35,263 bases of DNA, from contig CAYYDT010000001.1 in the NCBI GenBank assembly GCA_964470705.1, forward strand, positions 28,058 through 63,320, in the 5' to 3' direction. The notes under the pieces were generated by a model that was not told where the DNA came from, made no database searches, and saw nothing but the letters and a program-made list of their open reading frames with translations. Source of the DNA: an uncultured Gammaproteobacteria bacterium (GTDB taxonomy: Bacteria > Patescibacteriota > Microgenomatia > UBA12405 > JAHJSD01). Shown in pieces: positions 6,025 through 35,263 of the stretch; within the stretch, counting starts at the first letter, position 1, and each line of letters begins with the position of its first letter. The translations under genes were made by a program, and so were the position numbers.

Positions 6025-7182
6025 ATGACTAAGAAAAAAAATATCTATTTTGACTATGCCTCAACAACACCGGTGGCTGAAGAAGTGGAATCGGCAATGG
6101 AGGTTTATCTGGACAGAAAATTTGGCAACAGCGCTTCTTTACACTCTTTTGGCCGTCAGGCAAAACAAGCGCTGGAAAAAAGCCGGCAACAAATTGCCGG
6201 TTACTTAAATAGTTCACCAGAAAATCTGATTTTTACTGCTTCTGCCAGTGAAAGCAACAATTTAGCCCTTAAAGGTCTTGCCTGGGCCAATAAACAAAAA
6301 AAGCATCTTCTTATCTCTGCGATTGAACATGATTGTTTAATGAATACCGGCCGGTGGTTGGAAGGCCAGGGTTATCAATTGCAATTGATACCGGTAGATG
6401 AACATGGTTTAGTTGACCTGAATCAAGTCAAAAAAATGATTAGACCGGATACGTTGGTTGTTTCAGTGATGCACGCTAACAATGAGGTCGGCACTATCCA
6501 GCCGATCGCAGAAATTGGTCGTCTTTGCCGTGAAAAAGGTGTTTTATTTCATACCGATGCCGCTCAGACATTTGGCAAACTGCCTGTTGATGTCGAAAAA
6601 ATGAATTTAGATATGGTTACTCTTTCTTCCCATAAGATGTACGGTCCCAAAGGCGCCGCTGCCCTTTATGTTAAAGACGGCATTAATTTAACACCTTTAA
6701 TTCATGGCGGAGGACATGAAAAAAATATCCGGTCTTCTACTGTTAATGTTGCTGCTATAGTTGGTTTTAGCCGGGCAGTGGAACTATTTTTCCAAGGTAG
6801 GGAAGATTTTCAACGAATTGAAGAGTTACGGGATAAGTTAATTAAGGGTGTTTTGGAAAAAATTCCTAATTCGCGGTTAAACGGCCATCCCAAACAGCGT
6901 TTATATAACAACGCTAATTTTAGTTTTGCTTATGTAGAAGGGGAATCAATTATTTTAAAACTAGACCAAAAAGGAATTGCCGCTTCGACGGGATCGGCCT
7001 GCTCAGCACCTGACTTAAAGCCAAGCCATGTTTTACTTGCCCTTGGTTTAGCCCCAGAATTAGCTCATGGGTCTTTACGTTTGACTTTAGGTCGTTATAA
7101 TAAAGAATCAGACGTCAATTATTTATTGTCAGTTTTACCGGAGATTATTAAAGACTTAAGAAAAATTTCACCTTTTAAATAA
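6025..7182 (+). CDS. iscS: cysteine desulfurase, NifS/IscS type
   Basis: 385 aa. PLP lysine context SSHKMYGPKG and active-site loop STGSACSA. Confidence 0.9.
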   Translation: MTKKKNIYFDYASTTPVAEEVESAMEVYLDRKFGNSASLHSFGRQAKQALEKSRQQIAGYLNSSPENLIFTASASESNNLALKGLAWANKQKKHLLISAIEHDCLMNTGRWLEGQGYQLQLIPVDEHGLVDLNQVKKMIRPDTLVVSVMHANNEVGTIQPIAEIGRLCREKGVLFHTDAAQTFGKLPVDVEKMNLDMVTLSSHKMYGPKGAAALYVKDGINLTPLIHGGGHEKNIRSSTVNVAAIVGFSRAVELFFQGREDFQRIEELRDKLIKGVLEKIPNSRLNGHPKQRLYNNANFSFAYVEGESIILKLDQKGIAASTGSACSAPDLKPSHVLLALGLAPELAHGSLRLTLGRYNKESDVNYLLSVLPEIIKDLRKISPFK

Positions 7183-7679
7183 TGTATACCGATAAAGTTT
7201 TAGACCATTTTCAGAATCCGAAAAATTACGGCGAGATTAAAAGCCCAGATGGTATTGGTAAAGTTGGTAATGTTATTTGTGGCGATGTAATGTGGCTTTA
7301 TATCAAGGTGGACAAAAATCAGTCTGGCGAAGAGATTATTGACGATATTAAATTTAAAACTTTTGGTTGTGCGGCGGCGATTGCTACCAGCAGTATGGTT
7401 ACTGAGTTAGCTAAAGGAATGACTCTGGATCAAGCAGTAAAAATCAATAACCAGGATATAGTATCTGGATTAGGTGATTTGCCGCCGGTAAAAGTTCACT
7501 GTTCTGTGTTGGCGGCTGATGCTTTGGTTGAGGCGGTTTATGATTATTTATCCCAAAATGGTAAAAAGATTGATCAAAATTTAAAAAAACGCCATCAACG
7601 GATAGTTCGTGAAAAAAATATTATTGAAGAAAAGTATGGTCAATGGCAGGAGGGAGGTGAATCTGATGACTCCACTTAA
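7182..7679 (+). CDS. iscU: Fe-S cluster scaffold, IscU / NifU N-terminal type
   Basis: Three ligand Cys contexts (VICGDVM, FGCAAAIATSS, HCSVLA). TAATG overlap with the desulfurase gene. Confidence 0.9.
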   Translation: MYTDKVLDHFQNPKNYGEIKSPDGIGKVGNVICGDVMWLYIKVDKNQSGEEIIDDIKFKTFGCAAAIATSSMVTELAKGMTLDQAVKINNQDIVSGLGDLPPVKVHCSVLAADALVEAVYDYLSQNGKKIDQNLKKRHQRIVREKNIIEEKYGQWQEGGESDDST

Positions 7680-7980
7680 ATTAACAAGCAACAATTTCCA
7701 AGAAGAGGTTTTAGATTCAGAAAAACCTGTTTTGGTTGATTTTTGGGCAATTTGGTGCGGACCCTGCCGGGTGATGGACCCGATAATTAAAGAAGTAGCA
7801 GAGGAGTTGGGGGAAAAAGTAAAAGTTGGCAAATTAAATGTCGATGAAAATCAACAACTAGCAAGTGAATACGAAGTGCAGGCTATTCCAACAGTAATAA
7901 TTTTTAAAGACGGCCAGCCGGTAGAACGGTTGATTGGTATCCAGCCGAAAGAAAAATATCTGCAATCCCTAGAGGGGTAA
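7666..7980 (+). CDS. trxA: thioredoxin
   Basis: VLVDFWAIWCGPC active site and cis-Pro context AIPTV. ATG at 7666 follows AGGGAGGTGA; the 7609 ORF start lies inside iscU. Confidence 0.9.
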   Translation: MTPLKLTSNNFQEEVLDSEKPVLVDFWAIWCGPCRVMDPIIKEVAEELGEKVKVGKLNVDENQQLASEYEVQAIPTVIIFKDGQPVERLIGIQPKEKYLQSLEG

Positions 7981-8082: not shown

Positions 8083-8158
8083 TGGTCGGGGATGCCGGAC
8101 TTGAACCGGCGGCCTTTCGCACCCCATGCGAACGCGCTAGCCTCTGCGCCAATCCCCG
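8083..8158 (-). tRNA. tRNA-Pro (anticodon GGG), CCA encoded
   Basis: Hand-folded cloverleaf: CGGGGAT T G GCGC AGAGGCTA GCGC G TTCGC ATGGGGT GCGAA AGGCC GCCGG TTCAAGT CCGGC ATCCCCG A CCA (76 nt). Confidence 0.85.
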
Positions 8159-27996: not shown

Positions 27997-28116
27997 TGCC
28001 CGGCCTTGACCTATTTTCGCGTACCGTTGCCGATAGACTATCGTCAGCGCTGAGGAGTTTCACTTCTGTGTTCGGAATGGGAACAGGTGGTTCCACCTCG
28101 CTCCAAAGACCGGGCA
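27997..28116 (-). rRNA. rrf: 5S ribosomal RNA, not linked to any 23S within the window
   Basis: Minus strand reads TGCCCGGTC...CACCTGTTCCCATTCCGAACACAGAAGTGAAACTCCTCAGCGCTGACGATAGT...GGCCGGGCA. It matches the universal 5S loop B/C and helix I pattern. Ends are accurate to about 2 nt. Confidence 0.9.
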
Positions 28117-28991: not shown

Positions 28992-29062
28992 TGCCGGGTC
29001 GTTCAACGGTAGGACGGCACGCTCTGAACGTGTTAATCGTGGTTCGAGTCCACGCCCGGCAA
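28992..29062 (+). tRNA. tRNA-Gln (anticodon CTG), no encoded CCA
   Basis: Hand fold: TGCCGGG TC GTTC AACGGTA GGAC G GCACG CTCTGAA CGTGT TAAT CGTGG TTCGAGT CCACG CCCGGCA A. U1-A72 as in bacterial tRNA-Gln. Followed by CTA rather than CCA. Confidence 0.85.
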
Positions 29063-29216
29063 CTAATAACTCGGGAAAGAATATAGATTTGTTTTTTGGT
29101 CCGTAATGTTCTAAAATGAAATTGTATTAAAATGATTAAGAATAAAAAGGTTCGATTGTTTGCTATCGTTTTACTTATCCTTGTTGTTGGTTATATGTTG
29201 TATTCAGTTTTATAAA

Positions 29217-29591
29217 ATGGCTGTTCCTAAATTTAAACCACTAGAAAATTTAAGCGAAAGCGCTAAGAAAAAAATTAAGCCGATTTTGATCGCCTTATTG
29301 GCTTTGCTTTTAGGTGCCTTTGGTCTTGAAGCAACAAATACAGATTGGGATCTGGGTAAATTATTGTCCGGATCTTCTTTTGAAGAGGCAAGAGTGAGGC
29401 GGGATAAAGATGGGAATGTAGTTACTTCTGGAGGCAAGTTTACTGATGAGTACAACTGCGATGACTTTGAAACCCAGGAAGAGGCGCAGCGTTTTTTTAT
29501 CAATGCCGGCGGTCCGAATGAAGACGTAAATCGGCTTGATGGCGACAATGATGGTGTTGCCTGCGAATCTCTTCCAAAAGAAAAATTATGA
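29217..29591 (+). CDS. membrane-anchored Excalibur calcium-binding domain protein
   Basis: TM helix followed by a C-terminal DCDDF...RLDGDNDGVACE (DxDxDGxxCE) motif. ATG at 29217 preferred over the TTG at 29160. Confidence 0.7.
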   Translation: MAVPKFKPLENLSESAKKKIKPILIALLALLLGAFGLEATNTDWDLGKLLSGSSFEEARVRRDKDGNVVTSGGKFTDEYNCDDFETQEEAQRFFINAGGPNEDVNRLDGDNDGVACESLPKEKL

Positions 29592-29923
29592 TAAATATGT
29601 TAATAAAATTATTAATTAGGAGTTTCTCGGTTGTTATTGCTTCTTATATTGTTCCAGGAGTTAATGTTGAGGATTTTTTAACAGCAGTTTTAGTTGCGTT
29701 AACTTTAGCCGTTTTAAACACAATTGTTAAACCGATTTTAGTTTTTTTTACTCTACCGATTAATATTTTAACTTTTGGTTTATTCATTTTAATAATCAAC
29801 GGATTGATCGTTTGGTTAGTTGATTATCTTATTCCGCAGTTTACAGTCAGCACTTTCTTGTCTGGGTTAATCTTTAGTATCATTTTATCGATTGTCAGTT
29901 CAGTTCTTCTCGGTTTGAACTAA
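29588..29923 (+). CDS. DUF360 / YvlD (phage-holin-4-like) small membrane protein
   Basis: 111 aa, 3-4 TM segments, family-like block LNTIVKPILVFFTLPINILTFGLFILIINGL. ATGA overlap with the upstream gene. Confidence 0.6.
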   Translation: MINMLIKLLIRSFSVVIASYIVPGVNVEDFLTAVLVALTLAVLNTIVKPILVFFTLPINILTFGLFILIINGLIVWLVDYLIPQFTVSTFLSGLIFSIILSIVSSVLLGLN

Positions 29924-30003: not shown

Positions 30004-30031
30004 TTGACAAGAATGGCGAATTTTGTAGTAT
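30004..30031 (+). promoter_or_regulatory. putative promoter TTGACA-N16-TAGTAT
   Basis: -35 at 30004-30009 and -10 at 30026-30031. The same hexamer pair occurs at 30576-30604. Confidence 0.45.
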
Positions 30032-30065: not shown

Positions 30066-30563
30066 ATGAATAAAAACACAGTAATTATTATTGCCTTAGT
30101 AGTAGTTTTAGGAATCGGAGGATTAATTTTTATGACTGGGAATAATTCCCAGGAGTTGCCTGAGGATGAATTAACACCCCAGTTTTCAGGGGAATTAGTA
30201 GAAGATGAAATCGAGATCACGGGAAATCCAGAAACGGTAGTCGCTCTTTTTATGGATAATTTTATTGAGACAGCACCGCCAGAATCTGATATCGAGGCCT
30301 TAAATAATGCCCTTGATTTAATTTCAGATGAAGCAAAAATGCAGTTTGGCGATGAACCGACTTCCGGAGATTTAGCCATGTTTGTCGGTGTTCAAGATAT
30401 TCCTGATAACGGTTATCAAGTCAGTGGAGTTAGTTTTAATCAAGACGGTGATCAGGGAACTGCTAATGTTGAGGTAACTTTAAACTATTCTGGAGGCGAA
30501 TCAGTAAAAACGTTTGATTTAATAAAGGTAAATAATAACTGGGTAATAGATAAGATAAATTAA
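30066..30563 (+). CDS. membrane-anchored acidic hypothetical protein
   Basis: 165 aa, N-terminal TM helix, no Cys. GAAGGTGAG SD upstream. Confidence 0.6.
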   Translation: MNKNTVIIIALVVVLGIGGLIFMTGNNSQELPEDELTPQFSGELVEDEIEITGNPETVVALFMDNFIETAPPESDIEALNNALDLISDEAKMQFGDEPTSGDLAMFVGVQDIPDNGYQVSGVSFNQDGDQGTANVEVTLNYSGGESVKTFDLIKVNNNWVIDKIN

Positions 30564-30575
30564 TTTGTTTAGAAC

Positions 30576-30604
30576 TTGACAAATAATTATATCATTATTA
30601 GTAT
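30576..30604 (+). promoter_or_regulatory. putative promoter TTGACA-N17-TAGTAT for the 30623-35263 operon
   Basis: -35 at 30576-30581 and -10 at 30599-30604. Confidence 0.45.
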
Positions 30605-30622
30605 CTATAGACGGTAAGTGAT

Positions 30623-32338
30623 ATGTCTGTTAATAAAAAATTTAAAAACCTTTTTCCTGCGCTGTTGTTTTTTGTGGTTTCTTTTTTAGTTTTTGCCGGC
30701 TCAACAAAAGCACAGAATAAAACAACTATTTATTTCTTCTGGGGTGAGGGCTGTCCCCATTGTGCTAGTCAAAAAGAGTTTATCGACCAATGGGAGGATA
30801 AATATCCAGAATTGGAAGTAAAAAAAATTAATGCTTGGGAAAATGAAGAAAGCGCTCAGTTGTATGAGCAAATGGCAAAGTCGTATGGTATTGAAGCTAG
30901 GGGAGTGCCGGCAACTTTTATCGGCGATCACGATCCGATAATTGGCTTTGCCGAATATATTGCCGGTGACATAGAAGAAAAAATAGTTGATTGTATTGAA
31001 AATGGCTGTATTGATCCTGGAGAAAAAGCCGGGGTTGACACTAATCAGCAATCTCAACAGCAAACCAACGAGGTTTGTCTTCACTTTTTCTATCAAGAAG
31101 ATTGTGACCAGTGCCGGAATGTCGAGAGTTTATTAGCAGATCTGGAAAAAGAGTATCAGATCAATATTAGTAGATATAATGTTGATCAAGACAAAGAGTT
31201 ATACCAGCAGTTTAAAGAAACATACGGTCTAGCTGGCGCCGCTCATCCGATTATTTTTATCGGCGAGCGTTATTTAATTGGAGAATCTGGAATAAAAGAT
31301 TATTTGGAAAGGGAGATCCTCCTTTGTCAGGACCAGAGGTGTCAATGCCCGGTTGAAGAAATTCAGGCCTACACACCGGCACTGCCTAAAAAAGGTGATG
31401 CTGACCCGGAAAAGGAATACCAGGTTAATGTGCCTATTTTGGGAGAAGTTAATATTTCGGAAATGTCTTTACCGGTGATGACGGGTTTAATTTCTTTTGT
31501 TGATGGTTTTAACCCCTGCTCTTTGTGGCTGATTACCTTTTTGCTGGGTATTGTTATTCACACCGGGTCAAGAAAAAAGATTGTTCTAGTCGGCTTAACA
31601 TTTCTTTTAGTCACTTCGTTTATCTACGCCTTATTTATGGTCGGCTTATTAAAAGTCTTTACTTATGTTGGTTACATGGATTGGATTAAAATAGTCATTG
31701 CTTTAGTTGCCCTGATTTTTGCTTCGGTAAATATTAAGGATTATTTTTGGTATAAAAAGGGTGTCTCGTTGACTATTTCCGACAAATTTAAACCCAAAAT
31801 TTTCAGCCAGATTAGGGGTATTATGAATAAAAAATCTGACTTAGGAATGATGGCCGGAACAGTTGTTTTAGCGATTGGGGTTGCTTTGGTTGAACTTCCC
31901 TGCACCGCCGGTTTTCCGGTAATTTGGACAAGTATTCTGGCAGATCGCAATGTTGTCGGCAGTGCTTTTTACGGCTTGTTAATTATTTATATTTTAGTAT
32001 ATTTGCTCGATGAACTAATAGTTTTTGGCAGTATAGCCCTAACTTTAAGGGTCAGTGCTTTTGAAGAGAAGCACGGCCGTACCTTAAAACTGATCGGCGG
32101 GATGATCATGATGTCTCTGGCAGTTACCTTGTTGACAAAGCCGGAATTGATGGAAAGCGTTTCTGGAACATTGGTTGTTTTCGGCGCTGCTCTTGGTTTG
32201 TCGTTTTTGATATTAATTGTCCATCGCAAGTTTTTACCTAATTTGGGTGTGGAAATTGGAACTGAAAACCTTGCTTCAGAAGATGAACAAATAGAGGATC
32301 AGCAATTCAATATTAAAAATCAAACAAAGGAGGAATAA
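30623..32338 (+). CDS. signal peptide + two thioredoxin/glutaredoxin-like domains (CPHC, CDQC) + DsbD/CcdA-like polytopic membrane domain
   Basis: 571 aa. Signal-like N-terminus ending STKAQ. FFWGEGCPHC...GVPATFIG and FFYQEDCDQC...HPIIFIG (CxxC plus cis-Pro contexts). Then about 6-7 TM segments with Pro-Cys motifs in the first and fourth helices (DGFNPCSLW, ELPCTAGFP). Confidence 0.7.
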   Translation: MSVNKKFKNLFPALLFFVVSFLVFAGSTKAQNKTTIYFFWGEGCPHCASQKEFIDQWEDKYPELEVKKINAWENEESAQLYEQMAKSYGIEARGVPATFIGDHDPIIGFAEYIAGDIEEKIVDCIENGCIDPGEKAGVDTNQQSQQQTNEVCLHFFYQEDCDQCRNVESLLADLEKEYQINISRYNVDQDKELYQQFKETYGLAGAAHPIIFIGERYLIGESGIKDYLEREILLCQDQRCQCPVEEIQAYTPALPKKGDADPEKEYQVNVPILGEVNISEMSLPVMTGLISFVDGFNPCSLWLITFLLGIVIHTGSRKKIVLVGLTFLLVTSFIYALFMVGLLKVFTYVGYMDWIKIVIALVALIFASVNIKDYFWYKKGVSLTISDKFKPKIFSQIRGIMNKKSDLGMMAGTVVLAIGVALVELPCTAGFPVIWTSILADRNVVGSAFYGLLIIYILVYLLDELIVFGSIALTLRVSAFEEKHGRTLKLIGGMIMMSLAVTLLTKPELMESVSGTLVVFGAALGLSFLILIVHRKFLPNLGVEIGTENLASEDEQIEDQQFNIKNQTKEE

Positions 32339-32341
32339 AAA

Positions 32342-32761
32342 ATGAATAACCTTAATTTTCCAGACAATTTACTTTATAACCTTGATTTTTCTTGGGTGAA
32401 AATTGATGGAGAAATAGCTACCTTAGGAATTATTAAGCCCGCTGCCGATAAAGTAAAAGAGTTTGTTTTTATAAAGTTGCCGAAAGAAGGGGAAAAGGTT
32501 GCCCGCGGTGAGACTTACACTTCATTAGAAGCGCTGAAATGGAGTGGACAGATTGCTTCCCCCTTATCTGGAGAAATCGTTGAAGTTCACCAAGAACTTT
32601 TTGACCAGCCGGCAATTATTAATCAGGACCCTTATGGTAAGGGGTGGATTGCGAAACTAAAAGTAGGAAATCCAGAGGAAATAAAAGAATTATTAGATTC
32701 AAAGCAAATTGCTCAACAGGCAAGTGGTGATTTGTCAGAGGAGGTGAATAAAAGTGAATGA
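32342..32761 (+). CDS. gcvH: glycine-cleavage H-protein-like lipoyl carrier
   Basis: 139 aa. LEALKWSGQIASPLSGEIVEV matches the H-protein lipoyl-lysine motif (E-x-x-K-x(7)-P-x-SG-x-V-x-E-V). AAGGAGGAA SD inside the end of the upstream gene. Confidence 0.8.
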   Translation: MNNLNFPDNLLYNLDFSWVKIDGEIATLGIIKPAADKVKEFVFIKLPKEGEKVARGETYTSLEALKWSGQIASPLSGEIVEVHQELFDQPAIINQDPYGKGWIAKLKVGNPEEIKELLDSKQIAQQASGDLSEEVNKSE

Positions 32762-33524
32762 CTTGAAAAGTTTACAAAGGAAAATTGACAAGTTAATCAG
32801 CCCAAAAGGTGTGCCGGTAGGGGTGAAGTTGTTGAAATCAAAAAATACTTTGAAAGAAAATGAAATTATTCCCTTGGAAAACAACCGGGCTTTGTGCCAA
32901 CTTTTAAAAATGGTTGCTGTTTATGAAAAAACCAGAGGTGTTTATGTAAATAATATTGATGCCTGTGTTGTCGGCTCATATGTTATGGGGTTTGAATTGC
33001 CTCCGGAAGATCTAAAAGACCGGTGGGTTAAAGGCTTTGGTTATACATCTGAGAAATTTGATCAGTTATCTGATCAAATTGAGGCCATGCCGCAAGATAA
33101 ATACGAAGCGGCTGTTTTCGGCCCGCTTCAAGTGTTTGACCAATTAAATTTAGATCCGGAAGCAGTAATTCTTTTAGTTAATTCCTGCCAGAGTTATCTT
33201 GCTTTGATGGGTTATTTTGATGCTACCGGAAAAAAACCGGAATCTAATTTCAACGGTCATGCCGCTTGCGAAATTATTGCTGCGGTTGCTCAAGGTAAAT
33301 CACCTTGGTTGACAATTCCCTGCGGTGGGGCAAGAAGTATTGCTGATGCTCAAGATGACGAGATTTGGCTTGGGATGACGGTTGATCATCTGAAAACTTC
33401 CATTCAACGTTTGGAAATAATGGGGTTAAAATATCCGCCGGCAATTACCCAAATGCCGGTATCAGATTTAAACCCTGATCACCCATTGACTGATTTATTA
33501 GTCAGGGACGTCGATAAAAAGTAA
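32754..33524 (+). CDS. DUF169 (COG2043) family protein
   Basis: 256 aa. GTG start after GAGGAGGTGA, 8-nt overlap with gcvH. Conserved Cys contexts (DACVVGSY, GHAACE, IPCGGARS). Family call is from memory. Confidence 0.55.
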   Translation: MNDLKSLQRKIDKLISPKGVPVGVKLLKSKNTLKENEIIPLENNRALCQLLKMVAVYEKTRGVYVNNIDACVVGSYVMGFELPPEDLKDRWVKGFGYTSEKFDQLSDQIEAMPQDKYEAAVFGPLQVFDQLNLDPEAVILLVNSCQSYLALMGYFDATGKKPESNFNGHAACEIIAAVAQGKSPWLTIPCGGARSIADAQDDEIWLGMTVDHLKTSIQRLEIMGLKYPPAITQMPVSDLNPDHPLTDLLVRDVDKK

Positions 33525-34375
33525 TGAGCCTAACAAAATGGCCTGATTGGATAAAAATAAAACCATACAATAAATCAAAATATCTAAAAACATTAAAGAT
33601 TATAAACGATAATAAATTAACAACTGTTTGTTTGGAGGCAAATTGCCCGAACAGGTACGAGTGTTTTTCTTCCGGTACGGCAACATTTATGATTTTGGGT
33701 GACACCTGCACCAGAAACTGCCGTTACTGCAATGTCAAAAAAGGTTCCCCGAACCTGGTTGACAAAAATGAGCCGAAAAGGATTGCCCAGGCAGTAAAAA
33801 AATTAAATTTAGACTATGCAGTGATCACTTGTGTTACCCGCGATGATCTGGATGACGGCGGCGCCGGCCAATTTGTTAAAACAGTTGATGAAATAAAAAA
33901 AGTTAAACCAGGTTGTAAAATAGAATTGCTGGTTTCGGACTTAAAAGGAGACAAAAAATCGCTTGCCAAACTGCTGGTTGCAAACCCGGATGTTTTCAAT
34001 CATAATATTGAAGTAGTTGAATACTTATTTTCTTTATTAAGACCGGGAGGCGATTATCAGCGGTCAGTTAATTTGCTGGCTGCGGCGAAAGAAATTCAAC
34101 CTAAGATTGTTTTGAAATCCGGTTTAATGATTGGTCTAGGTGAGACAAAAGAACAAATTATCAGGACTTTTAAGGATCTAAAAGCAGCTGGCTGCCAAGT
34201 ATTAACTGTTGGCCAATATTTACCGCCGACACCGGCACATGTTCCTGTAAAAAAGTTTTACCAGCCGGAAGAGTTCGAAAGTTTAAAAAAGGAAGCAAAT
34301 TCTTTAGGTTTTGCTAAAGTGGAAGCAGGACCATTAGTAAGAAGTTCATATCGAGCGATGGAGGTGATTAATTAA
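33524..34375 (+). CDS. lipA: lipoyl synthase
   Basis: Auxiliary-cluster CLEANCPNRYEC and radical-SAM CTRNCRYC motifs, and C-terminal RSSYRA. TAATG overlaps at both ends. Confidence 0.92.
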   Translation: MSLTKWPDWIKIKPYNKSKYLKTLKIINDNKLTTVCLEANCPNRYECFSSGTATFMILGDTCTRNCRYCNVKKGSPNLVDKNEPKRIAQAVKKLNLDYAVITCVTRDDLDDGGAGQFVKTVDEIKKVKPGCKIELLVSDLKGDKKSLAKLLVANPDVFNHNIEVVEYLFSLLRPGGDYQRSVNLLAAAKEIQPKIVLKSGLMIGLGETKEQIIRTFKDLKAAGCQVLTVGQYLPPTPAHVPVKKFYQPEEFESLKKEANSLGFAKVEAGPLVRSSYRAMEVIN

Positions 34376-34914
34376 TGAAAAAAAACAAACTTTATTTTCT
34401 GATTTTAATAACCGTTTTTCTCGGCTTTTCGGCTATCTATATGGGGTACCTTATTTATATGGAAACCCAATCCGCACCTAAAATTGCCGGCGAAATGGAA
34501 GTAGCCGATCAACCGCTGATAACTGGGTTCCAGTCGGAAGAAGACGCGCTAGTTAAGGCGCCAAAAATTATTGATGCCGGGATCGGGTCTATTGAATTGA
34601 CAATGGACAAGGAGGCTTATATTTCTCATGAAGACGTTGAAATGACTCTTAACTTGGAAGTTGACAATGAGATTGAAAACGCAGAAATAAGAATTACTGG
34701 TATTAAGCCTCACCAAACTGCCTACATTAGGGAGACAAAAGTTGTCGATTTAAAAGAAGGTGAAAATACAATTGTTATTGTTGTAAAAGCTCCTTCATGT
34801 ACTAGCGGCTGCGGTGGTGTGTATCCCGGGCCGTATGACATTGAGGCAGAGGTGTTCGTTGATGAAGGTTTAGCTGGTCAGACGCTAACAACAATAACTT
34901 TAGCGGAAGAATAA
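34375..34914 (+). CDS. membrane-anchored hypothetical protein with SCTSGCGG (CxxxC) motif
   Basis: 179 aa. N-terminal TM helix and an acidic, predicted beta-rich ectodomain. Embedded between lipA and the ligase gene. Confidence 0.6.
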   Translation: MKKNKLYFLILITVFLGFSAIYMGYLIYMETQSAPKIAGEMEVADQPLITGFQSEEDALVKAPKIIDAGIGSIELTMDKEAYISHEDVEMTLNLEVDNEIENAEIRITGIKPHQTAYIRETKVVDLKEGENTIVIVVKAPSCTSGCGGVYPGPYDIEAEVFVDEGLAGQTLTTITLAEE

Positions 34915-35263
34915 ATGGACAGGGTACGACTTTTAAAATTGATAAAAGACAGCGGACCGATGCAGATGGCTGTTGATGAGGCAATAGCTTTAAGTTGTGC
35001 ACAGGGAAAGGTTTTGCCCACCTTGCGCTTTTATATTTTTGACCCTCCGGCAATAACTCTCGGACACAGCCAGTTGATCGATCAGTTTAATTTAAGCGCA
35101 GTTGAGAAAAAAGGTTTTCACTTGGTGAGAAGAATTACCGGCGGGACAGCTGTTTTGCATAAAAACGACTTAGTTTATTCATTGGTCATGCCGGAAAATT
35201 TTTTGCCTGAAAAAGTGGTTGATGCTTACCGGTTTTTAAGCGACGGTTTAGTTGAAGGGTTGA
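34915..35263 (+). CDS. lipoate-protein ligase / octanoyltransferase (LplA-LipM family), 3' end cut by window edge
   Basis: Frame open to the window end: PTLRFYIFDPPAITLGHSQ...VRRITGGTAVLH is the BPL/LplA/LipB catalytic-domain N-terminus. ATG immediately follows the upstream TAA. Confidence 0.8.
   Translation, partial: MDRVRLLKLIKDSGPMQMAVDEAIALSCAQGKVLPTLRFYIFDPPAITLGHSQLIDQFNLSAVEKKGFHLVRRITGGTAVLHKNDLVYSLVMPENFLPEKVVDAYRFLSDGLVEGL

Follow-up and report, generated by a model that had tools for sequence, protein, structure and literature searches.

A six-gene operon at the end of a 35,263-nt stretch of DNA (contig CAYYDT010000001.1 of assembly GCA_964470705.1, positions 28,058 to 63,320, forward strand; the whole stretch is hereafter the window) was found to open with a gene for an exported thioredoxin (Trx) protein joined to a membrane domain, here termed TrxTM, and to continue with genes that include those for a GcvH-type lipoyl carrier, a lipoyl synthase and a lipoate-protein ligase. 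Comparative genomics gives strong support for a functional coupling between TrxTM and a dedicated H protein that is lipoylated locally. We further propose, with the balance of the evidence about even, that the operon may encode a self-contained transmembrane thiol-disulfide relay, the cytoplasmic partner of which would be this dedicated H protein, instead of or besides thioredoxin. The closest relatives of the window are labelled Patescibacteria, of the candidate phyla radiation (CPR).

The operon and its promoter-like site

The six tightly packed genes and the site that precedes them are as follows:

30576-30604, plus strand: sigma-70-like site TTGACA-N17-TAGTAT, matching 10 of 12 consensus positions, 19 nt 5' of the TrxTM start codon
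30623-32338, plus strand: TrxTM (571 amino acids)
32342-32761, plus strand: GcvH-type lipoyl carrier (139 amino acids; GCV_H, 8e-35)
32754-33524, plus strand: DUF169 protein (256 amino acids, GTG start; PF02596, 2e-28)
33524-34375, plus strand: lipoyl synthase LipA (283 amino acids)
34375-34914, plus strand: anchored protein with a Cys pair (179 amino acids; no family)
34915-35263, plus strand: catalytic (large) subunit of a lipoate-protein ligase, LplA (116 codons within the window, cut by its end)

TrxTM and GcvH are separated by a 3-nt gap, the GcvH and DUF169 genes overlap by 8 nt, both junctions of LipA with its neighbours read TAATG, and the anchored-protein gene ends in TAA directly before the ATG of the ligase. 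An earlier reading of this DNA from its letters (the sequence-only reading) had described six plus-strand genes with near-zero spacing and these junctions, and the junctions matched exactly. The identities that it had assigned (Trx-Trx, GcvH, DUF169, LipA, an anchored CxxxC protein and an LplA-family enzyme) were likewise borne out by family searches of all six products, among which the anchored protein alone was without a family. The promoter-like site that it had placed before the operon is present in the sequence, but 15 sigma-70-like sites were found in the region against 14.8 expected from shuffled sequence, and a second site of equal quality lies at 30004-30031. Since such sites occur as often in shuffled sequence, the site is no evidence by itself, and it was rejected as support for a single transcript.

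Conservation of the TrxTM-GcvH linkage

Among 80 species-level genome loci of the TrxTM family, a GcvH gene lay directly 3' of TrxTM in 23, all of them CPR or DPANN, and in none of the loci of Chloroflexota type; the same adjacency was present in seven of the 80 best metagenome loci. When the search was reversed and begun from the GcvH subfamily, TrxTM was found directly upstream in three of three previously unseen contigs, one of the three membrane proteins being without a fused Trx, and at least 22 of the 31 longer GcvH-subfamily contigs were equal in size to a contig with a TrxTM match (compared by hand, not computed). The linkage to the 571-amino-acid gene, on which the sequence-only reading had made its proposal depend, is thus kept in relatives. 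Once pooled and de-duplicated, the same-strand TrxTM-GcvH pairs numbered 33, from CPR bacteria and DPANN archaea, the distance between the two genes being 5 nt at the median and ranging from -59 to 186.

The other genes of the operon were surveyed in the same loci. Where more than 6 kb of downstream sequence was available, LipA was present in 15 of 18 loci and LplA in 17 of 18. LipA was found in 14 of the 32 linked loci and in none of the 128 unlinked ones, LplA in 16 and one, a separate secreted Trx (sTrx) in 16 and one, and a flavoprotein of the CoA-disulfide reductase (CoADR) type in 15 and three, respectively. The phylogeny of the membrane domain was inferred with an outgroup-rooted neighbour-joining analysis, in which linked loci made up 25 of the 35 leaves of one clade; midpoint rooting was uninformative on the monophyly of this GcvH-linked clade. 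Bacterial and archaeal sequences were interleaved in the tree, which implies transfer of the whole module between domains.

Outside the GcvH-linked clade, the TrxTM family was also seen in ars-like clusters with genes for ArsR, an MTH895/ArsE thioredoxin, an ArsP_1 permease, Acr3, an ArsC of the low-molecular-weight protein tyrosine phosphatase type and a methyltransferase. Examples are locus L053 (56-4207; ArsC, Acr3 and methyltransferase) and locus L033 (93-2444), and several source samples, judged from the sample labels only, presumably came from soda-lake or salt-flat sites. The genes for ArsR, the MTH895/ArsE thioredoxin (Trx3) and ArsP_1 also stand as a trio directly 5' of TrxTM-GcvH in three CPR loci (L178:3458-6716; L087:7487-9225; L090:6352-8370).

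The lipoyl carrier

The product of the second gene has the GCV_H fold (PF01597) with a lipoyl-lysine in an E-A-L-K context:

32537-32539, plus strand: lipoyl-lysine K66 of the GcvH-type protein, motif EALK-WSGQ

It passed the subfamily model NF002270 (score 121.2; cut-off 117), and its score of 100.3 on TIGR00527 lies under the 115.85 cut-off, so the equivalog level of glycine cleavage was not reached. In the operon-linked proteins (window 32528-32551, residues 63-70) the lysine is followed by Trp at K+1 and by His or Gln at K+4, in place of the small residues and the acidic K+4 of canonical sequences. The resulting K-W-[ST]-G-[HQ] was present in 51 of 52 close homologues (at least 50% identity), whereas other, canonical GcvH proteins read K[AT]V[SAE][DE]. 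An altered motif beside the lipoyl-lysine is what would be expected for a new partner, and KW[ST]G[HQ] is a candidate specificity determinant. The operon-linked GcvH forms a subfamily of its own.

Partners from the usual lipoate-dependent complexes were not encoded nearby. As the sequence-only reading had stated, family searches found no homologue of gcvT, gcvP, lpd or a 2-oxoacid dehydrogenase E2 in the window; GcvT, GcvP and E2 homologues were equally absent from 178 loci totalling 2.08 Mb, as was the amidotransferase LipL.

Domain architecture of TrxTM

An alignment of 37 homologues and an AlphaFold2 (AF2) model divide TrxTM into a signal peptide, two domains of Trx/glutaredoxin fold and a membrane domain of seven transmembrane (TM) helices. 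The main features are:

30719-30997, plus strand: Trx1, about residues 33-125 (Thioredoxin_2, 1e-8; GlrX_YruB, 5e-10)
30752-30763, plus strand: Trx1 active site C44-P-H-C47, with a CIENGC motif after it
31064-31357, plus strand: Trx2, about residues 148-245 (Glutaredoxin, 9e-10; Thioredoxin, 2e-7; TraF, 7e-8)
31103-31114, plus strand: Trx2 active site C161-D-Q-C164, CxQC in the family
31445-32260, plus strand: membrane domain, about residues 275-546
31517-31519, plus strand: Cys of D-G-F-N-P-C299 in TM1, invariant in 37 sequences
31901-31903, plus strand: Cys of E-L-P-C427-T-A-G in TM4, invariant in 37 sequences

In the exported part, WGxGCPHC of Trx1 is conserved and C152, C235, C240 and C242 of Trx2 are nearly invariant across the alignment. 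Trx1 is 42-58% identical to the separate, anchored sTrx proteins of relatives, and the number of Trx domains fused to the membrane domain varies in the family between none, one and two. At one extreme, a GcvH-linked membrane protein of 352 amino acids (L174:5923-6981) has no fused Trx, the only Trx being encoded by a separate downstream gene; it is a CcdA-like minimal form of the system. LipA is absent from this locus and from L176, both of which encode the ligase only. The family as a whole is large, with more than 2500 homologues, 718 clusters at 50% identity (E<=1e-30) and more than 547 species-level genomes.

The membrane domain showed 61% mean column identity over the 37 homologues. Its AF2 model (mean predicted local distance difference test score, pLDDT, 72) has seven helices, of which TM1 and TM4 are each broken at their own Cys. 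The sequence-only reading had let its proposal hang on conservation of the two membrane Cys residues, and both C299 and C427 proved invariant. Each stands in a Pro-Cys motif (N-P-C299 and L-P-C427) in the first helix of one half of the domain, as is characteristic of DsbD and CcdA. The loop between TM3 and TM4, NIKDYFWYKKG.S.TISDK.KPKIF, is basic and highly conserved. Loop charges (the positive-inside rule) and the AF2 helices predict an N-out/C-in topology, which would place the Trx domains outside and this conserved loop inside, facing the cytoplasm.

A small CcdA/DsbD profile was built from canonical CcdA genes in the fetched loci together with E. coli DsbD. The membrane domain matched it weakly with hhalign (E 9.8e-4, probability 22%), collinearly over 198 columns spanning TM1 to TM6 and with both Cys aligned, whereas control profiles for ArsP_1, Acr3 and YeeE gave E values of 0.15-0.53 over at most 25 columns. 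The match to E. coli DsbD as a single sequence was not significant (E 0.29), with the TM1 Cys aligned. SfLAP, a family of the LysE clan, was matched by two of the 37 members at 1e-3. Canonical CcdA or DsbD_2 genes adjoin TrxTM-family genes in several loci (L007:2963 onward; L055:9232-9924; L028:481-1158; L063:12685-13362; L067:2465-3385), from which it follows that the two membrane families coexist and are not substitutes for each other.

Operon variants and accessory proteins

Every operon variant begins with TrxTM-GcvH, and three types were distinguished by what follows. In type A, the commonest (14 of 23 informative loci), these are sTrx (anchored, CPHC), a 440-amino-acid flavoprotein, LipA, LplA and LplB. 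The flavoprotein matched the CoA-disulfide reductase model at 2e-91, below its cut-off, which places it in the CoADR/Nox/Npsr class; its best matches in the PDB were NoxA-3, CoADR and CoA-persulfide reductase, and it retains the single redox Cys in YSPCALPY. A true Lpd was considered as the reductase and rejected, as the flavoprotein is of CoADR/Nox type. Type B comprises sTrx, TusA, YeeE, DsrE, DsrF, DsrH, LipA, a gene resembling that of the anchored Cys-pair protein, LplA and LplB, so that in at least six loci the TusA-YeeE-DsrE-DsrF-DsrH block replaces the flavoprotein. Type C, found in the window and in L086, L088 and L089, continues with DUF169, LipA, the anchored Cys-pair protein and LplA. 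In one further locus (L005) DUF169 occurs together with the flavoprotein.

The window and its two closest relatives, L086 and L087, all break inside the operon: the window after codon 116 of LplA, L086 after LipA and L087 after GcvH. Variation between strains, or a locus that is difficult to assemble, could account for these breaks. Gene order past LplA was therefore inferred from two relatives of 57% identity, L088 and L089, in which LplA is followed by a SurA_N-like gene and then by the end of the operon, so the operon of the window is probably complete at LplA, with no NAD(P)H reductase. Genes of this SurA_N-like kind (about 218 amino acids, with the N-terminal chaperone domain of PpiD/SurA) flank the operon on its 5' or 3' side in 13 of 32 linked loci and one of 128 unlinked loci, for example at L088:14970-15629, L007:3676-4332 and L086:8770-9438; none adjoins the operon in the window.

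The DUF169 protein matched PF02596 with 100 bits (cut-off 27) and occupies the same position in L086, L088 and L089. It has four invariant Cys residues (C48, C71, C172 and C190), and neither a PDB sequence match nor, for its AF2 model (pLDDT 92), a PDB fold match was obtained. We know of no function for the DUF169 family. A homologue of 61% identity is encoded 2.6 kb from a GcvH gene in the cultured archaeon Thermococcus aggregans (L091:8001-11753), and further homologues were found in DPANN, Nitrososphaeria and Acetothermia.

The fourth gene product is a lipoyl synthase LipA by its curated models (NCBIfam NF009544, 388 bits, cut-off 210; TIGR00510, 350 bits, cut-off 310) and by its motifs, the two Cys motifs of the Fe-S clusters, CLEANCPNRYEC (CX4CX5C) and CTRNCRYC (CX3CX2C), and RSSY being readable in the translation. 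The anchored Cys-pair protein is held in the membrane by a single TM helix at its N-terminus, and its exported domain, rich in beta structure, bears a CTSGC motif, which in the alignment of homologues forms part of a conserved P-x-C-(T)S-x-C-x-G-x-x-P-G-x-Y. In L088 and L090 its homologues are encoded between LipA and LplA, in L007, L010 and L015 on the 5' side of the operon, and the protein is a plausible exported client. The part of the ligase inside the window matched LplA-B_cat (8e-18) and LplA_large (2e-19) with scores under the curated cut-offs; the same gene on Logan contig L082 encodes at least 267 amino acids and matched LplA_large at 2e-42, again below the curated cut-off. These family matches suggest a ligase of LplA type (NF053750-like), not LipM. 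The LplB gene is absent from the window-type relatives L088 and L089 and present in types A and B.

A putative transmembrane thiol-disulfide relay

In the proposed relay, K66 of the GcvH-like protein would receive octanoate or lipoate from LplA, and LipA would add the two sulfurs, as their families are known to do. The dithiolane/dithiol arm may then exchange with the buried C299/C427 pair of the seven-helix domain, on whose conserved basic loop lipoyl-GcvH might dock, and the membrane Cys pair would exchange with Trx2 (CDQC) and subsequently with Trx1 (CPHC) or sTrx. Targets of the Trx domains would be envelope proteins, for instance the anchored Cys-pair protein encoded in the operon. Flow is most likely outward and reducing, from dihydrolipoyl (about -290 mV) through the membrane Cys pair and Trx to the isomerisation or repair of cysteines in surface proteins. 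This direction is favoured because lipoamide (-290 mV) is slightly more reducing than thioredoxin, because all known DsbD-type conduits work outward, and because the charge would come from an NAD(P)H flavoprotein. In most relatives the lipoyl arm may be recharged by the co-encoded NAD(P)H flavoprotein of the CoADR/Nox family, which stands between GcvH and LipA in about 60% of relatives and would be needed to charge the lipoyl donor. In the window variant DUF169 fills the slot of the flavoprotein and is, speculatively, a candidate recharging enzyme.

Several observations weigh against this proposal. Most members of the membrane family, in Chloroflexota and elsewhere, are without GcvH linkage, and the window encodes a WCGPC thioredoxin, so that a conventional electron donor for TrxTM exists. 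No NAD(P)H reductase could be recognised in the operon of the window, it is not obvious how the TusA-YeeE-DsrEFH variant would serve as a source of electrons, and types B and C as a whole lack a clear one. CPHC is a DsbA-type, that is oxidising, motif. A second reducing pathway would be superfluous beside the canonical CcdA or DsbD_2 genes that adjoin TrxTM in several loci. Kinship of the membrane domain with DsbD also found little echo in other searches: Pfam returned no family for the isolated membrane region at E<=10, the DsbD (PF02683) and DsbD_2 (PF13386) HMMs (hidden Markov models) matched none of the 37 members, a profile search of PDB sequences gave no match, and Foldseek comparison of the AF2 model with the PDB gave transporter matches at chance level only and did not recover CcdA. 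An internal repeat of three plus three helices was likewise not found, hhalign of TM1-3 against TM4-6 aligning just the PC dipeptide.

The description of the membrane part as DsbD-like in the sequence-only reading consequently holds in so far as the CcdA profile was matched collinearly with both Cys aligned, and fails for Pfam, the PDB and Foldseek; the domain may be a very distant member of the DsbD superfamily, which is weakly backed and not established. The larger claim of that reading, a transmembrane thiol reduction driven by a lipoyl protein, fared similarly, with the coupling, the kept linkage, the invariant Cys residues and the reductase of relatives in its favour, and the weak DsbD label, the reductase missing from the window operon and the presence of thioredoxin against it. 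In the wider form of the proposal, CPR and DPANN would share, by transfer between domains, a hitherto unrecognised envelope redox system in which a dedicated lipoylated H protein, charged by a CoADR-like NAD(P)H flavoprotein, DUF169 or a sulfur relay, is the obligate cytoplasmic partner of a new two-Cys membrane family that drives exported Trx; we hold this wider form tentatively, at a little under even confidence.

Alternative explanations

A relay of the same parts might instead run inward as a quinone-independent disulfide-forming pathway, in which the CPHC Trx would oxidise exported proteins and electrons would pass via the membrane Cys pair to oxidised lipoyl-GcvH. Its sinks would be NAD+ or O2 via the CoADR/Nox-like flavoprotein, sulfane sulfur via TusA/DsrEFH, or DUF169, and the variation of the middle module among operon types would suit this, as terminal sinks often vary. 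The CPHC site and the R-G-V-P-A-x-F cis-Pro loop are DsbA-like (the DSBA Pfam model matches 25 of 37 members), the exported part carries extra conserved Cys pairs, and the operon is found together with genes for a SurA_N-like chaperone and for an exported protein with a Cys pair. To our knowledge CPR and DPANN are generally without quinones, transfer from dihydrolipoyl to NAD+ is the normal direction of lipoamide dehydrogenase, and canonical CcdA/DsbD_2 beside TrxTM fits complementary roles better than redundant ones. However, lipoamide (about -290 mV) would be poorly suited to oxidise a DsbA-type couple (about -120 mV) and every characterised member of the DsbD superfamily moves electrons outward, and we regard inward flow as unlikely.

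Handling of thiophilic species has a small probability in our estimation. Here the vicinal dithiol of lipoyl-GcvH, together with the membrane Cys pair, would serve as carrier or reductant for sulfane sulfur, polysulfide, thiosulfate, arsenite or other metalloids. The TusA-YeeE-DsrE-DsrF-DsrH block that stands in place of the flavoprotein points this way, although it could merely feed sulfur to LipA, which it always precedes. CoA-persulfide reductase is among the nearest solved relatives of the flavoprotein, and the sHdr-LbpA system couples lipoyl proteins with TusA/DsrE (PMC6067878, PMC11094781). The ars-like clusters of the membrane family outside the GcvH clade, the ArsR-Trx3-ArsP_1 trio directly 5' of TrxTM-GcvH in three loci and the occurrence of Trx3 no more than 5 kb away in 11 of the 32 linked loci are also consistent with it. 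Against these stand the absence of Hdr-like, ArsC or Acr3 genes from the window operon and most linked loci, and the exported Trx domains and anchored sTrx, which sulfur or arsenic trafficking alone would hardly explain.

That the five genes after TrxTM assemble lipoate in the ordinary way, for a glycine cleavage system or 2-oxoacid dehydrogenases with genes elsewhere, and lie by chance beside an unrelated envelope redox gene, is very improbable given the conserved linkage: GcvH-first lipoyl relays are known in Bacillus (PMC10332631) and the thioredoxin of the window genome could serve TrxTM, but the adjacency with its 5-nt median gap is kept over two domains of life and three operon variants, the distinct GcvH subfamily accompanies TrxTM in every context examined, LipL, E2, GcvT and GcvP are missing from the 2.08 Mb of loci, and LipA is nearby in none of the 128 membrane-family loci outside the clade.

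Comparison with known systems

In function the module comes closest to the DsbD, CcdA and ScsB conduits, if the proposed relay is correct. In common with these it has two Pro-Cys cysteines in TM1 and TM4, essential in the known conduits, and exported Trx domains in modular number, fused or separate, besides the weak collinear CcdA profile match with both Cys aligned. It differs in a membrane domain with no HMM, PDB-sequence or fold match, in having seven helices and not six or eight, in the long invariant basic loop between TM3 and TM4, and in its conserved neighbours, which are a lipoyl-H protein and lipoylation enzymes and not thioredoxin.

Lipoyl proteins are known from about five enzyme systems. 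The mycobacterial Lpd-DlaT(SucB)-AhpD-AhpC relay is similar in that dihydrolipoyl bound to one protein serves to reduce a CxxC protein and is recharged by a flavoprotein that uses NAD(P)H. That relay is wholly cytoplasmic and employs a borrowed dehydrogenase-complex E2, a true Lpd and AhpD/AhpC, in contrast to the stand-alone GcvH carrier, single-Cys CoADR/Nox-type flavoprotein and membrane-protein acceptor of the present module. In Bacillus, GcvH is likewise the first acceptor and LipA acts on GcvH (the LipM-GcvH-LipA-LipL relay), whereas the ligase here appears to be of LplA type instead of LipM, and neither LipL nor E2 is encoded close by. The GcvH-L, LplA2, SirTM and macrodomain operon of Staphylococcus and Streptococcus shares a dedicated GcvH paralogue with its own ligase, devoted to redox defence and not to glycine cleavage, but has no membrane or Trx component and no LipA (PMC4518038, PMC12440151). 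Neither the SirTM sirtuin nor the macrodomain was found in the window operon or in any annotated relative. The sHdr-LbpA system with sLpl(AB), LipS1 and LipS2 also combines GcvH-like lipoyl proteins with dedicated lipoylation genes, and type B operons share TusA and the DsrE family with it (PMC6067878, PMC10332631, PMC11094781). HdrA/B/C-like genes and LipS1/LipS2 were absent from the window and from annotated relatives, the synthase here being LipA; an exported Trx-membrane protein occurs only here, and the hosts are fermentative ultra-small symbionts and not sulfur oxidisers.

A prokaryote-wide survey of lipoate assembly makes no mention of the gene combination (PMC10332631), and no description of it was found in the full-text literature searched, in agreement with the sequence-only reading, which had known of none. 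What is new here would be an unclassified membrane family in a transmembrane thiol-disulfide relay with a lipoyl-protein partner; the relay type itself is known. If the proposal is true, it represents a new use of lipoate, as a transmembrane electron relay, and a new class of donor for DsbD-like conduits. It would explain why lipoylation genes are kept in organisms without glycine cleavage or 2-oxoacid dehydrogenases, giving a function to the 'orphan' GcvH, LipA and LplA genes of ultra-small symbionts, and would define a large membrane protein family that has no Pfam model. It also offers candidate roles for DUF169 and the CoADR-like subfamily, and a handle on cysteine management on the CPR/DPANN surface that is used for host attachment.

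Neighbouring genes

Outside the operon, the window holds bacterial housekeeping genes, including those for ribosomal proteins, RpoA, RecA, RNase Y, aminoacyl-tRNA synthetases, RecJ and MiaA, along with IscS and NifU. Other features located were:

6025-7182: cysteine desulfurase (Aminotran_5)
7182-7679: NifU_N scaffold
7609-7980: canonical WCGPC thioredoxin, the real start probably near 7666
8083-8158, minus strand: tRNA-Pro
27998-28114, minus strand: 5S rRNA (80.9 bits)
28992-29063: tRNA-Gln

The desulfurase and the NifU_N scaffold indicate that the genome has an Fe-S assembly set, which LipA requires. The 5S rRNA gene is isolated, with neither 16S nor 23S within the 35-kb window. On the 5' side of the operon (window 29160-29923 and 30066-30563) are genes for an Excalibur-domain secreted protein, a membrane protein of the Phage_holin_4_2 family and a 165-amino-acid anchored protein without a family. 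The operon neighbours in relatives include Excalibur (L086) and holin_4_2 (L174) genes as well.

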